Of a stretch of DNA of 64,000 nt, positions 19,376 to 43,330 are shown piece by piece. The stretch comes from Eledone cirrhosa (lineage: Eukaryota), in contig OZ024743.1 of the NCBI GenBank assembly GCA_964016885.1, positions 192,448,001 through 192,512,000 of the forward strand, written 5' to 3'. How positions within the stretch are numbered: position 1 is the stretch's first letter; every line of letters starts with the position of its first letter. A program made the translations under genes and the position numbers. The notes under the pieces are model-generated. The model had not been told where the DNA came from, searched no databases, and saw nothing but the letters and a program-made list of their open reading frames with translations.

Positions 19376-19411
<36 letters not shown>

Positions 19412-19553
19412 GTTAAAGTCTGTCTCAAGCCATCAGACTTATCTCTGGCTTCAATTTTTGTTCAGCATTAAGCGACTGAGAGTATAAACGAAGTGATATA
19501 TATATATGAAATTTACTGCTAGAAAACACACCCGCTGAGGCTATAGAACGCAA

Positions 19554-19745
19554 GACTTGTTGACAAAGTAAATCCTTTGTTCTGTCGTCAAAGGCCATTA
19601 ACTTGCAGACCCCTGCAAGCGGAATTAGTCGATCTCGGATTTACAGAAACCTAGCATGGATGTTGTATGTTATATGTGATGTATATTGTATGCTATACGA
19701 TATGCGTTATATGTTGCATTCGATCTCCGCACGATGGTCCAGGTC
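19554..19745 (+). ncRNA. Type I hammerhead ribozyme, U3-A8 core variant with expanded stems II and III
   Basis: Stem I GACTTG(19554)/CAGGTC(19740); core TTGACAA (19560-66); A.A mismatch then stem II GTAAATCC/GGATTTAC; GAAA 19646-49; stem III ACC/GGT; GUC site at 19737-39. Confidence 0.65.
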
Positions 19746-20677
19746 AGTCCAAATCTTTCCCTGAGTTCAGTCTTTTTCGTTGCTATGGCAATGCGGCTGG
19801 ACTGCCGGTCACTATATTTGATTTGCAAAGCTGTCTAAACGTATTGTTATAACTCTGGGGTATTATTCTCCATCGAGTGCTAAGCTGCATTCCGAATCTG
19901 CATTCGTTAGCTTAGCCGCAGCCTAAAGCTTCGTTAATGCTGTACTAAAATTTGTATATATATATTGTTATACTTTGGGAGGGTCATGTTGCCAATAAGA
20001 AACACACGCACCAGTTGCTTTCACTTCAATTTATTATATTGGCAACATGACCCTCCCAAAGTATAACAATATCGGTTTCAACACACGATTTCAGATAAAG
20101 AATCTTGCTAAACAAATTCAGAAACGATATATATATATAAGCTGTATAACAAAGTGCAGGGCAATAAAGATAGACGGTAGCCACGGAATAGGCAGACCTA
20201 GAAAAACATGGGATGAGCTGATAAACTCTGACCTCACACACTTACACCTCTCCAAGACAATGTCACTGGACCGAGACCTTTGGCGGTACTCAGTAACAGA
20301 GAAGACCCGCCTTGCCAGTAGGCATCTCTAACAAAATACACCCCGTCCCGCCACCACCCCCACCCCATCCACACCACCCCGTTCTATGTAAAGTTATGTT
20401 GGTGCCGCGCCATCCAGGCCGAAACAAATGAGATCGTGTAGGTGTCACGACAAAAAAACACACAGTCCACGCTGTAATGTGGCCGTGTAGGCAACACGGT
20501 AAAAACCTCCCAGACCCACACTGTAAATGTGGTTGGTGTTAGGAAGGGCATCCAACTGTAGAAAACCTGCCAGGCAGTCCTATGCGAGCAAGAAAATCAC
20601 TCTTGCCTCAAGTGGGACTACCCCCGTCCAAACCCATGCAAGCGTGGAACACGGACGTTAAACGTTGATGATGATGA

Positions 20678-20726
<49 letters not shown>

Positions 20727-20867
20727 GTAATAATAGTAATAATAGTAATAATAATAAATTTGAAGACTAAAATCCAAAGAGGGCTCGATAAGGATAAATA
20801 TATATCAAATATATAAGGAATATATATCAAATGTATAAGAACCGTAGAGCAAAAATCTGTTATTTTA

Positions 20868-20927
<60 letters not shown>

Positions 20928-21126
20928 ATTTATATAATCTGTTATTTTAATAAATATATATATATATATATATATTTTTTTTTTAACATGTCTATTGAGC
21001 ACTCTAATTCGATATGTGTATTTCCACATTCACTCGAATTGTTTTCGCGGATATAGGGGTCATCTCCCTTGTCTAATGCCATGTGCGTTTTTCACCGCTA
21101 GTTGACTCCTCTGCCGCCAGGAAAAA

Positions 21127-21261
21127 ACTCGTTGATAACGTAAACTCCATTCCACTTACTCTAGTAGGCTTTTATATTTATATGTGAGCTGATAGAGTAC
21201 AGTCTAAGGATTTACAGAAACCCATGAAGCTAGATTTAACACCTTTCTAGTGGGTCCGGGT
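21127..21261 (+). ncRNA. Type I hammerhead ribozyme (U3-A8 variant), copy 1 in the 615-bp unit
   Basis: Stem I ACTCG/CGGGT; core TTGATAA 21132-38; C.A mismatch; stem II GTAAA(C)TCC/GGATTTAC; GAAA 21217-20; stem III ACCCA..CTAGA/TCTAG.TGGGT; GUC with predicted cleavage after 21256. Confidence 0.75.
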
Positions 21262-21741
21262 ATGATTTTACATTCATTTAAATTATTGACGTATTGTTTT
21301 ATTGATATTTTTTATCTGTTTGGCCCGAATCTTCCTTTATCGATTTTAAATCGTATGGTTGATTGTAGACTTGTTCTATATGTGACGGTATTTTAACGAT
21401 AGTTATAGCTCTGATTCATCTGAATTATTGAGCCCTCTGCCGCTCATATCGAATTTCGTTTATCGTGAACTCGTGCGCCGATTTTTCGATACTCGATCTT
21501 TCTAATATATTTAGCTCTGGACATAGCTATCCACCAGTTAATTTTATTGCTCATTTTTTGTCGTTTCTATTGAGTGATGAATAGCTTTTGTTTTATTTTA
21601 ACATGTCTATTGAGCACTCTAATTCGATATGTGTATTTCCACATTCACTCGAATTGTTTTCGCGGATATAGGGGTCATCTCCCTTGTCTAATGCCATGTG
21701 CGTTTTTCACCGCTAGTTGACTCCTCTGCCGCCAGGAAAAA

Positions 21742-21876
21742 ACTCGTTGATAACGTAAACTCCATTCCACTTACTCTAGTAGGCTTTTATATTTATATGT
21801 GAGCTGATAGAGTACAGTCTAAGGATTTACAGAAACCCATGAAGCTAGATTTAACACCTTTCTAGTGGGTCCGGGT
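21742..21876 (+). ncRNA. Type I hammerhead ribozyme (U3-A8 variant), copy 2 in the 615-bp unit
   Basis: Same sequence as 21127-21261 shifted by 615; predicted cleavage after 21871. Confidence 0.75.
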
Positions 21877-22159
21877 ATGATTTTACATTCATTTAAATTA
21901 TTGACGTATTGTTTTATTGATATTTTTTATCTGTTTGGCCCGAATCTTCCTTTATCGATTTTAAATCGTATGGTTGATTGTAGACTTGTTCTATATGTGA
22001 CGGTATTTTAACGATAGTTATAGCTCTGATTCATCTGAATTATTGAGCCCTCTGCCGCTCATATCGAATTTCGTTTATCGTGAACTCGTGCGCCGATTTT
22101 TCGATACTCGATCTTTCTAATATATATATATATATATAAATAACCTTTTTTCCTTTCAG

Positions 22160-23680
22160 GTACAAAGAACCTCTCAACCCAAGGAAATAACAGCTACTGT
22201 CAAGGTACAAATCTCAAGACTGCCACCCTCAATGTTGGCACCCTGAAAAGTAAATCAGGTAAAATTGTGGAACTGTTAGAGAGAAGAGAAGTAGATGTAT
22301 GATGTGTACAAGAAGTGAGAGGGAGAGGTACCTCAGTGAGACTAATCACAGACAAACAACAGAGATATAAACTTTACTGGATAGGTAATGACGATGGAGT
22401 AGGAGGTATAAGCATCTTACTAGCTGAGAAATGGGTAGATAAAGTGATAGAGGTATTAGAGTAAGTGACAGAATCACCAAGCTTAGAATAGCTGTAAGAA
22501 ATAGACTGGTGACAATTACATCTACCTATGCTCCACAGGCAGGACTAAGTAAAGACCAAAAGGACAGGTTCTATGAGAAACTTCACAGACAACTTCAGGG
22601 ACTGATGAAAGAGACCTCATCTTCCTGGCAGGCGACTTAAACAGACATGTGGGACAGTACCAAGACGAATTCTGTGGAGTTCACAGCAGCTATGGCTATG
22701 GCTTAAGAAATGAAGAGGGTTGGAGACTCCTGGAATTCTATGGCACGAATGAACTAACCATTTGCAACAAAAATTTCAAGAAATCAGCCAGCCACCTGAT
22801 CTCATATGAATCAGGTGAACACACAAGCCAAATTGATTACTTACTCATAAGAGGAGATTAACAGATTGTAATAAATACTAAGCCCTTCCCTGGGGAAGAA
22901 TACACTGCCCAACACAAGTTAGTTATTAGCGCCATCAAAATAAACACAGAGCAGAACAAGATATGCAGGAAAATATGGAGACGGAGGGTTTGGAGGCTAA
23001 AGGACCTTTCAGTTGAATATAAGTTTAGAAAGGCACTACAGGATGCAGTAAATGAGAGGGGTGAGAGCTGGGTATATATTACATAGAAGACAACTAAAAA
23101 TTCCTATGTGACAACCTTTTGCAATCTACTGATGAGACTTTTGGCTGGAGTAAAGCACTAGCCAGACAGGGTGACTAAATGGTGGAACAGCACAGTGGAT
23201 AGACCTATTAGAGCCAAGAGACAGGCATAGAAAGACTGGAAAAATGGTGGTAGCAGAGACCAGTATTCCCACTGTTGACAGCAAAAGACTTCTCCCCACA
23301 TACAAAAGGCTGGCTGTATAACACCTGTGTGCAAAGTGTGATGCTGCATGGTATGAAACATGGACAGTGACTGCAGAAGACATGTGTAGACTGGAGAGAA
23401 ATGAAGCAGCCATGCAATGTAAATGTGAGAGAAAAGCAGAGTTTGGATGAACTGAAGAAGTTGGGTTTAAGAGGAATCAGGGGTGGTGTGCAAGAGAGAA
23501 GACTGCATTGGTACAGACATGTGATGCACATGGAGAAAGACCTGAGCAGAGGTAGTGAGAGCTGACCTTAAATCACTGAGACTCACAAAGAAGATGTCAA
23601 AGAAACACAGTGAGTAAAGAGATGCTGTGCTGAAAAAAACCCATCCAACTCTTGCAAACATGGAAAAACAGCTGTAAGAT
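22160..23680 (+). mobile_element. RTE LINE remnant: AP endonuclease region joined by an internal deletion to the 3' end
   Basis: ATLNVGTL, VQEVR, YAPQ, AGDLN, GYGLRNEEG, QIDY; after about 23265 it switches to C-terminal motifs (ETWTV, RLERNE). Confidence 0.85.
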
Positions 23681-41466: not shown

Positions 41467-43330
41467 TAATTAGTTACAACAGTGTACTGGTACTTAAGTT
41501 TTGTTGGGTTGTTTACCTCAAATCATTCAGTATATCATAAAAAGAAAAATGGTTTCCCACAATGGAGATTTTATAAAAATATAGGTGAGTTCTAAGGGTA
41601 GATAATCCCCATTATCTAGAAACCAACAAATACCTTACATAATGTAAGTGAAAAAAGAGATAACAATAAAAAAAAAGGTTATTAGAGAACACTCCAACCT
41701 TAATCGGTGGGATAATAGTCAAGTAGTCATGGATTAGTTTAATGTCTTCAAACACTCAAAGAATGCTAAGTTTACACAATTTGATATAGTTGACTTTTAT
41801 CTTTCCTTACCCAGGACCTTGGATTTCGCTAGCAATTTCACCATATATATACGAGTTAGTAATATCCCACTGTAGGAAAACCCTCCTCTTTAAAATAGAA
41901 ATCCACTAAAAATTACCTATTCGATGTGGTGATGGGATTATTTGACAGTACTGATATATGTGATTTGGGGGACCTTTTTATCTTAGACACACTACGTAAG
42001 AATTCCTTGACTTCCATATGGGCCTATATCGTGATGATGGTCTGGGACTATCGAGCCATAACCTCAAAACGTTTAGAAAAAAAATCTAATAATTACCTTC
42101 AACAACCTAGACTAAAAATGACCATCTCTACCAACTTCACCAATGTTAACTTCCTAGATGTTAACTTAGACCTATGTCTACGCACATACATACCATTCCC
42201 CCACAAACCCAGTGAAAAACTTAGGTATATTCATAAGGACTCTAGTCCTCCCACCACCAACATAGTTTTTATAAATCTCATTAATAACATCAGCAAGAGG
42301 GTATCTAGCAAAGCCATCTTTGACAGGGCAGCCCCCAACAACAACAACTCAGCCCCAGCATTAGTGGCTTCTTCGAGAGAATCTCTTACTCTCCAGATCA
42401 CTGCCCTATAACTAGCAAGAAAAAATCTAGGCATAAAGCCATAATGTGGTTCACACCACCATTCGTGCTCAATATGAAGACAATGTAGGTAGAAAATACC
42501 TAGCCTTCTTAGGTTTTCGCTTCCCTGTAGCCTACAAATACCAGCAAATATTTAACTGCTACACAATGAAAATAGGTTACTCATGTACCAAAAATATGAA
42601 ATCCCACATCACCAACAAACACAAAAGTCTTCCACCTTACGGATGCTCATGCAGAAGGCCAGAGGCATACTCCCTGGATCAACAGTGCACACCCCTCCTG
42701 TGGTGATACATTAAGCAGAAGTTACCTCCACCAACCAGAACCACTAAACTGAAGCCTGGACTTCTGTAGGAATGTTTGAGAGCCGGTTCAAAAGCCATTT
42801 CCTGAACCACGAAACAACGTTCTGACCACTCAGCTTGCGAACCATATATGGAACCTCAAAGATAACAGCACAGTATTTTCCATTAAATAAAGGATACTGG
42901 AAAGATCCACTCCTACGTCAATGGGATGGCATGTTGGTAGCTGTGTAACTCGAAGAAGTGGAATATACTCTCACAACAGACTTCAGGCAAACATTGCTTA
43001 AATATACGCTTCCCCTGCTTCAATTGCTGTCATCCTTAAGCAAAATTTATTCTGAATAAATGGTCTAAAACAGATTAATTGAATTTATTTTTTTGAATTT
43101 TCAATTCAACCCCTGGGCTCGCTGTGAAACAGTTGCCTACCAAGGATTTTTTTTAATAGTTACCTTCCTTTTCACTTACATTATATAAGGTGTATTTGTG
43201 TATTTATAGATAATTTCGGGTTTACCTACACTTAGAACTCTTCTATACTTTCTAAAATCTCCACGTTGGGAAGCCAAACAACCCAACGAAACCTAAGTAC
43301 TTGTACATGTTGTAACTAACTAATTTTATA
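41467..43330 (+). mobile_element. Decayed, 5'-truncated Penelope-like element (RT + GIY-YIG) with inverted pseudo-LTR termini
   Basis: Frameshifted motifs QFDIVDFY (41777), FDVVMG..D..DICDL, GLYRDDGL (42021), VNFLDVNLDL, WFTPPF..NVGRKYL, HIWNLKD. About 41467-41665 is a diverged reverse complement of about 43160-43330. Confidence 0.85.

Follow-up and report, generated by a model that had tools for sequence, protein, structure and literature searches.

The insert at 19508..19955 (+ strand) of the window, the whole stretch of 64,000 nt that was analysed, is read as a 5'-truncated copy of a non-autonomous retrozyme of about 653 nt, which is predicted to be self-cleaving and was likely mobilised into (TA)n by a Penelope element. 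We assign a probability of about 0.72 to this reading. The predicted ribozyme would combine the core YUGANRA...GAAA with an A.A mismatch, a stem II of 8 bp, a rod-like stem II arm of 73-81 nt and a long stem III. The 5' flank of stem I would pair with an internal loop of arm II, and the resulting pseudoknot of 4-6 bp would stand in for the usual loop-loop contact, so that the monomer could be cleaved. Both the pseudoknot and the retrozyme nature of the element were overlooked in the earlier sequence-only reading of this DNA.

The insert and its repeat family

The 448-nt insert lies between a 5' (TA)n target tract (19496..19507) and a 3' (TA)n target tract (19956..19965), both seen in the window sequence; most sister copies likewise start in (TA)n. 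An insert of ~450 bp between TA tracts with retained CpG had been reported before. Its place and its CpG content were confirmed, with an observed/expected ratio of 1.0 for the insert versus 0.48 for the window, and the retention is due to the youth of the family, here called family Q. The insert is not self-contained. Comparison with genome homologues identified it as positions 206-653 of the family Q monomer, the 3' 448 of ~653 nt. The first ~205 nt of the monomer, including the GGTTACCTCCCTT motif, are absent from the window copy. The 3' region (19746..19955, + strand) extends to the fixed 3' end of the family, the putative priming site, 216 nt past the predicted cleavage site. At the ends of the element no terminal inverted repeats of a DNA transposon were found. 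Directly behind the element, at 19963-20070, lies a fragment of a different TA-associated repeat in fold-back form, an inverted duplication; its weak matches to miRNA precursors, far below the gathering score, reflect only the hairpin.

A search of the window's own genome revealed full-length matches with 93-100% identity for the best 40 of 3064 first-look candidates. Family Q showed one fixed 3' end, followed by (TA)n, and variable 5' ends at 60 loci. Most copies reach further upstream than the window copy and many join the 3' end of another copy; these head-to-tail junctions therefore define a monomer of ~653 nt. Copies extending beyond the monomer start enter another monomer or (TA)n. Most copies comprise less than 1.4 monomers and partial tandems predominate; one locus (L156) contains more than two monomers. 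PMC8557442 describes Penelope-like elements (PLEs) as having these same features, namely a fixed 3' end, truncation at the 5' end, partial tandems and insertion into (TA)n.

The scaffold pattern of the motif gave 1701 matches in the genome versus one in the control. With a second pattern, from which those stem II sequences were excluded, 2889 matches versus 393 in the control were obtained. Many of these are a LINE coding stretch, and 39 of the first 100 of the 2889 matches listed were read by eye as further families. The genome thus holds a group of related elements with thousands of motif matches, which includes a 615-bp unit also present in the window. The elements of the group are non-coding and about 609-655 nt long. 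At the family level the properties of a non-LTR retrozyme were found: a non-coding unit with one type I hammerhead motif, occurring both dispersed and head-to-tail. A metagenome scan for the scaffold yielded 69 matches, none of which combined the extended stem II with stems I and III; the best-looking match was rejected on reading.

The window copy itself has one hammerhead motif, whereas Li et al. expect at least two consecutive complete hammerheads in an active copy. Since it carries a single predicted ribozyme, lacks the upstream motif and has a decayed stem III, it is probably a dead end and an inert locus. Read-through RNA of this copy might still be cleaved.

The 615-bp family is represented by a separate insertion of ~1.9 units at 20976..22120 (+ strand), with two hammerhead motifs whose cores are located at 21132 and 21747. 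This family forms pure, long and perfect head-to-tail arrays with 99-100% identity and a fixed 3' end. It is very young, younger than family Q, and is the best candidate for present-day expression. The sequences TTGANAANGTAAA and GGATTTACAGAAACC occur three times each in the window, once in the element and twice in the 615-bp unit; 0.15 and 0.12 occurrences, respectively, were expected, and 0/100 shuffles reached three. As claimed earlier, the two elements share essentially only the ribozyme scaffold, one 15-mer scaffold word being the only notable shared word in BLASTN (E 0.001). They had also been regarded as independent evidence for the ribozyme. This had to be abandoned, because family Q and the 615-bp family are linked by intermediate families, a common upstream motif and a similar distance to the 3' end. 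Both elements descend from one common ancestor.

Some further observations concern the surroundings and relatives of the 615-bp insertion. An internal loop in which AGAA or AGUA faces UGAC or UGAU recurs in the stem II arms of the 615-type families (e.g. L296, L033). Read by eye it resembles tandem G.A pairs, a possible candidate for a protein-binding site. The insertion is followed by a broken LINE coding sequence (22160-23000), and the window is filled with several tRNA-derived and 48-bp-repeat-containing SINE-like families.

Hammerhead motif, predicted pseudoknot and comparative tests

All core elements of a type I hammerhead are present in order on the + strand, with stem I open and a variant at positions 3/8. 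The core U3 U4 G5 A6 C7 A8 A9 is located at 19560..19566. It is preceded by the 5' strand of stem I (19554..19559), in which pairs 1-4 from the core were paired in 30/30 representatives; the 3' strand is 19740..19745. Stem II of 8 bp is formed by 19568..19575 and 19637..19644, in agreement with the pairing tests. The stem III arm of 90 nt (19649..19738) consists of a 3-bp base, a damaged helix and a long G.U-rich hairpin. According to hammerhead numbering, cleavage is predicted on the 3' side of C17 at 19739. The positions reported before for stem I (GACTTG/CAGGTC), stem II (GTAAATCC/GGATTTAC), the 3-bp base of stem III and the site after 19739 were all reproduced.

Right after A9/G12 no R10.1-Y11.1 pair was found; the G-C pair is separated from the core by an A.A (or C.A) mismatch. 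The A at 10.1 is position 19567, and A 11.1 followed by G12 A13 A14 A15.1 is found at 19645..19649. Position 10.1 was A in 28 and C in two of the 30 representatives (A or C was demanded by the search pattern), with C in the 615-bp family, and A 11.1 was present in 29/30 family copies. For PLE hammerheads, File S2 of PMC8557442 provides precedents of a 1x1 mismatch between core and stem II, with U.U in many Hydra families and C.A in PLE-X1_cBra, a Chara element; a further U.U case at this place has been described.

Positions 3/8 are U-A in the window copy and U.G or C-G in family Q. In 28/29 sister copies 19565 (position 8) is G, and contigs from two runs of one sample, which cover the element and inform on its variants and not on starts, ends or expression, showed family variants with G at 19565 in nearly all of the depth. 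Of 158 genome matches, the first 100 had G at position 8 in 94 cases, A in five (all in CpG context) and T in one; U3.G8 was found in 77 and the canonical C3 in 16. The core of family Q is YUGANGA, and A8 of the window copy is a private CpG decay. The proposal of TTGAYAA as family core is thereby superseded, and the A8 that the element has in common with the 615-bp unit is a coincidence of this decay. Family Q has been amplified with C3-G8 and, more often, with U3.G8. Over the 30 representatives of the whole group, U-A was counted 17 times, U.G eight times, C-G four times and C.A once. A hammerhead with U3-A8 is natural and active (PMC3088659; PMC11300833); a rate for a U3.G8 hammerhead was not found in the literature search.

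For the comparison, 427 motif instances were clustered at 90% to 34 clusters, of which 29 were aligned and, together with the window copy, gave the 30 representatives. Clusters with truncated 5' flank (L128, L168, L256) or internal deletions (L142, L321) were left out, and L300, L316, L317 and L334 were set aside as non-members. Since the letters of the core, the A in front of GAAA and the initial G-C pair were prescribed by the search patterns, their invariance is no evidence. No demand was made on pairing of stem I, on pairing of stem II in new families or on the pseudoknot. At a mean column identity of 53%, the own partner strand was better than swapped partners for stem I and for stem II (0 of 20000 permutations each, kinship ignored). 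The second pair of stem II was T-A in 14 and C-G in 14 of the 30 representatives. Two-sided changes were detected in 11/23 pairs, a result reached by 1 of 500 shuffles (unedited MAFFT alignment, kinship ignored), and in the MAFFT alignment 87% of the proposed pairs were paired versus 24-49% in slid controls. These results support purifying selection on one ancestral motif and agree with the earlier proposal of a selected variant hammerhead.

An unsupervised all-against-all covariation test with a tree-based null, the kind of check suggested with that proposal, covered 7021 column pairs, none of which reached significance (best E 1.6); a stem II pair ranked third with E 1.9, and the pseudoknot was not significant. 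The alignment used contains few independent changes, and the pseudoknot is misregistered in it; the negative outcome nevertheless holds. On the same alignment RNAalifold found almost no consensus structure and preferred a 4-bp pairing of ACC(U/C) with the 3' strand of stem I. This pairing of the ACC(U/C) after the core (A1 columns 130-133 with 225-228) is kept in 30/30 with one two-sided change. It could be an inactive conformer protecting circles, or a by-product of stem I covariation. In free MFE folds all three core stems were formed in 3/30 representatives, with gaps of 0-9.5 kcal/mol; for the window copy the hammerhead fold lies within 1.3-2.3 kcal/mol of the MFE, the pseudoknot not counted. 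In Rfam, which misses the hammerhead motif of the whole group, no hammerhead match was obtained for the element, either at the gathering score or at E up to 10 (19400-22200).

The missing Rfam match, the lack of significance in the unsupervised test and the matches of looser patterns to unrelated sequence, namely the LINE coding stretch and the 69 metagenome matches without full motif, would also be expected if the likeness to a hammerhead had arisen by chance in an ordinary satellite-like or SINE-like repeat. The ordered core elements and three stems in 30 divergent representatives, and the two-sided changes in stems left free by the patterns, make this explanation very improbable.

The pseudoknot was noticed on comparing families: the sequence just 5' of stem I can pair with loop II, as GAAC/GTTC in family Q and as GGAA/TTCC in the 615-bp family. 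For a third family, which has GTCC, an upstream GGAC was predicted before it was seen there, giving GAAC/GUUC, GGAC/GUCC and GGAA/UUCC by family. In the window copy the predicted 5' strand (AGAACG, 19545..19550, + strand), known from family comparison, faces the predicted 3' strand (TGTTCT, 19578..19583, + strand) on the 5' side of the internal loop of the stem II arm. With columns anchored on conserved letters, pairs 1-4 were paired in 30, 29, 30 and 30 of 30. Pair 2 was A-U in 18, G-C in nine and G.U in two representatives, with four parsimony steps on each side. When own and swapped partners were compared, 1 of 20000 permutations was as good (kinship ignored), versus 7754, 10882 and 19413 of 20000 for three control windows. 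The predicted pseudoknot is thus the best-supported extra feature of the motif in targeted tests.

The stem II arm had a length of 73-81 nt in all 30 representatives (the script allowed 60-90). With the pseudoknot strand left free, it folded as one irregular, unbranched rod in most of them; in the window copy the extension (19584..19633, + strand) comprises the helix 19584-19587/19630-19633, internal loops and an apical hairpin at 19602-19619. The motif was first drawn with a branched stem II with two extra hairpins and no pseudoknot. One of these, CTTGCAG/CTGCAAG, is indeed kept, in 8-10 of 10 lineage representatives per pair and with one two-sided change. For the other, CTTTG/CAAAG, each pair is formed in 28-30 of 30 close copies, but the hairpin is lost in sister subfamilies (outer pair C-G in 2/10 lineage representatives), occupies the pseudoknot strand and lacks a counterpart in the 615-type families. 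Together with the rod in most representatives, this makes the branched structure improbable and leaves the description as a 'branched' subclass unsupported.

Stem III is more variable, with arms of 35-90 nt across the group. The helix TAGCAT/ATGCTA that had been placed there can pair in close copies (as TAGCGT), but it is not kept in the lineage (3-8 of 10 per pair) and loses to a hairpin of ~32 bp in the MFE fold. The 3-bp base, named before as the weak point, is a smaller concern than feared: in sister copies a further helix with 7/8 pairs follows it after a 1-nt bulge. Two private G>A changes at 19656 and 19731 damage a stem III helix of the window copy.

A likely Penelope-like partner and the proposed mode of spread

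One family copy joins the end of a frame with RT and GIY-YIG directly, with no TA tract between. This chimera (L031:4670-8146; 1/40) consists of an inverted pLTR, a 5'-truncated PLE ORF, one full retrozyme monomer and (TA)n, and is best read as a putative template switch during one insertion. Within 232 retrozyme loci and the window, a PLE ORF is joined to the long hammerhead at one place (three overlapping loci). An endonuclease search with 54934 candidates, 150 of which were scored, assigned the frame to an abundant family. Its member L124 (G000:C5:35075000-35083000) is a near-complete Hydra-type Penelope whose open frame is 927 aa long; its pLTRs are direct, and a piece at the 5' end is inverted. 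The frame carries RWK, DKT, YxDD, CxCx5C, IY..YIG, CxxC and CxH and has 494 scored homologues. RWK, DKT, the CxCx5C linker, a C-terminal GIY-YIG with CxxC and CxH, and (TA)n targeting are given as marks of the Hydra clade in PMC8557442 (section 11); by its motifs rather than by an RT tree, L124 shows these marks, including the hammerhead-bearing pLTR and the insertion into (TA)n. In Pfam no match was found for the 927-aa protein, and one homologue weakly matched RVT_1. A Naiad PLE as partner was rejected, the endonuclease being C-terminal rather than N-terminal. The window itself contains a diverged Penelope-type RT fragment at 41920-42333 with 33% identity to L124.

The retrozyme shares the target, the end structure and one short motif with this autonomous Hydra-clade PLE of the genome. 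Unlike the PLE it has no ORF, and its hammerhead is not of the minimal type of the autonomous pLTR. The latter, with U3-A8 core and palindromic stem III, was detected in 25/30 loci of the L124 family, whose pLTR is unlike the retrozyme; the exact core was present in 23/30 related loci. No long homology between retrozyme and autonomous pLTR was found. The shared motif, (GG)TTACCTCCCTT or a variant, is located upstream of the core in 16/23 untruncated representatives and in the autonomous pLTR. GGTTACCTCCCTT and its variants lie 50-75 nt upstream of the core in retrozymes and 114 nt in the autonomous pLTR. A promoter or an RNP signal are guesses at its role; the interpretation as U1 mimic or splice site was rejected, as the TTACCT part varies while CTCCCTT stays. 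On account of the same target, the shared motif and the one chimera, a Hydra-clade Penelope element is the likely mobiliser of the retrozyme.

The locus with a PLE ORF running straight into the monomer could also suggest that the element is a solo or truncated pLTR of an as yet unfound autonomous Penelope family, the more so as 150 of 54934 endonuclease candidates were scored and other families were unseen. Several results speak against this. In 29/30 endonuclease loci of the L124 family the 3' pLTR is a different one, for which reason the element was also rejected as a regular pLTR of that family. The ORF-joined place is one in 232 retrozyme loci and the window, copies past the monomer start enter another monomer or (TA)n, and the 615-bp family is found in pure arrays. 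A pLTR origin is therefore considered unlikely.

For the preferred reading, mobilisation of a non-autonomous retrozyme, the following course is proposed. Multimeric transcripts would be cut to monomers and then ligated into circles, as in the retrozyme model (PMC7229834, PMC4209133). At the target, (TA)n would be nicked by the Penelope endonuclease, and reverse transcription primed by this nick would begin at a TA-like site inside the template, ~215-250 nt downstream of the cleavage site. Products from partial monomers up to long arrays could arise as the enzyme copies around the circle or follows an uncut multimer; in the window copy, reverse transcription would have stopped after 448 nt. In representatives where it was readable, the fixed 3' end is located 208-319 nt, mostly 215-250 nt, downstream of the predicted cleavage site. 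This position downstream of the cleavage site instead of at it is consistent with priming within a circle or on a longer transcript. Genomic 5' ends showed no pile-up where cleavage is predicted (1/18, 1/~15 independent sites and 1/12; the listings are redundant and hold only about 33 independent sites). This fits circular or uncut templates and lends no support to cleavage.

The same absence of a pile-up would be expected if the ancestral ribozyme was active, while the U3.G8 subfamily cleaves poorly or not at all and arose from read-through multimers that stayed uncut, the fold now serving mainly in protein binding or packaging. Such a loss of function would agree with the predominance of U3.G8 (77 of the first 100 matches listed), a wobble where a Watson-Crick pair is expected, with family Q copies of mostly less than 1.4 monomers, with the alternative pairing that competes with stem I and with the low in vitro activity of metazoan PLE minimal hammerheads (PMC4209133). 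On the other hand, positions 3/8 stay within pairing states in 29/30 representatives across families at 53% column identity, the pseudoknot is placed where a contact of stems I and II is needed, and circular templates equally predict no pile-up. We regard a mainly non-catalytic role as rather unlikely.

Comparison with known systems and implications

The literature already describes retrozymes, pseudoknot hammerheads, PLE hammerheads that have U3-A8 and a long helix II, and mismatches at the stem II base. The element would be a structural variant of a PLE-dependent retrozyme. Like it, the animal non-LTR retrozymes (PMC7229834; Li et al. 2026, 10.64898/2026.07.22.740005) occur as non-coding dispersed monomers and head-to-tail arrays. 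They likewise have one type I hammerhead per unit, a GC content below 45% (42% here) and co-occurring Penelope-like elements. The monomer is longer here, with 609-653 nt versus 220-390 nt (PMC7229834; variable lengths are reported by Li et al.). Stem III is long, in contrast to 1-2 bp with palindromic loop in animal retrozymes, and the stem II arm of 73-81 nt with predicted pseudoknot takes the place of the canonical loop-loop contact. For animal retrozymes RNA expression and circles were shown; for the element described here they are predicted.

The PLE hammerheads of Schistosoma (PMC8557442) resemble the motif in U3-A8, a helix II of 7-8 bp and a short helix I, and those of fungi and protists (PMC8557442) in the large helix III. 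In contrast to the motif, in 34 rows of File S2 of PMC8557442 every core starts with C3, no A.A mismatch occurs and the longest loop 2 has 35 nt; for the PLE hammerheads in the available part of PMC8557442 no pseudoknot is described. In pseudoknot-stabilised hammerheads (PMC3088659; PMC11300833) a pseudoknot of 4-6 bp keeps stems I and II parallel, similar to the arrangement predicted here. Perreault et al. (2011) predicted a pseudoknot in ~40% of representatives of all three types and reported loss and rescue by mutation (PMC3088659). In the solved pseudoknot hammerhead stem II is very short (PMC11300833), while here the 3' strand of the pseudoknot is located on an internal loop of a long arm atop the 8-bp stem II. 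The motif further differs from published pseudoknot hammerheads as a high-copy animal retroelement with a natural series of C-G, U.G and U-A at 3/8. A description of this combination was not found in the literature; the supplements of PMC7229834, PMC4209133 and PMC3088659 and bioRxiv papers may hold similar motifs.

We tentatively consider, as a possible though less probable extension, that the motif is a distinct animal hammerhead subclass which present models fail to see. An internal-loop pseudoknot on a conserved arm of ~77 nt would allow fast monomeric cleavage and ligation and would tolerate U3.G8, and the arm might be a second domain for protein binding or switching that lets circles of ~650 nt parasitise Hydra-type Penelope enzymes. 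If so, the catalytic core would be present in the genome as a natural series of mutants that came through rounds of amplification.

Because of the fixed internal 3' end, the arrays and the chimera, the proposed Penelope retrotransposition from circular templates can be tested, and a candidate enzyme for it can be named. The natural series of C3-G8, U3.G8 and U3-A8, three pseudoknot sequences and stem III arms of 35-90 nt is suited to ask how a tertiary contact buffers changes of the core. Should the motif prove to cleave, thousands of hammerheads in such genomes escape descriptor and Rfam searches, and the counts of animal retrozymes as well as statements of 'no hammerhead' on retroelements would be lower bounds.
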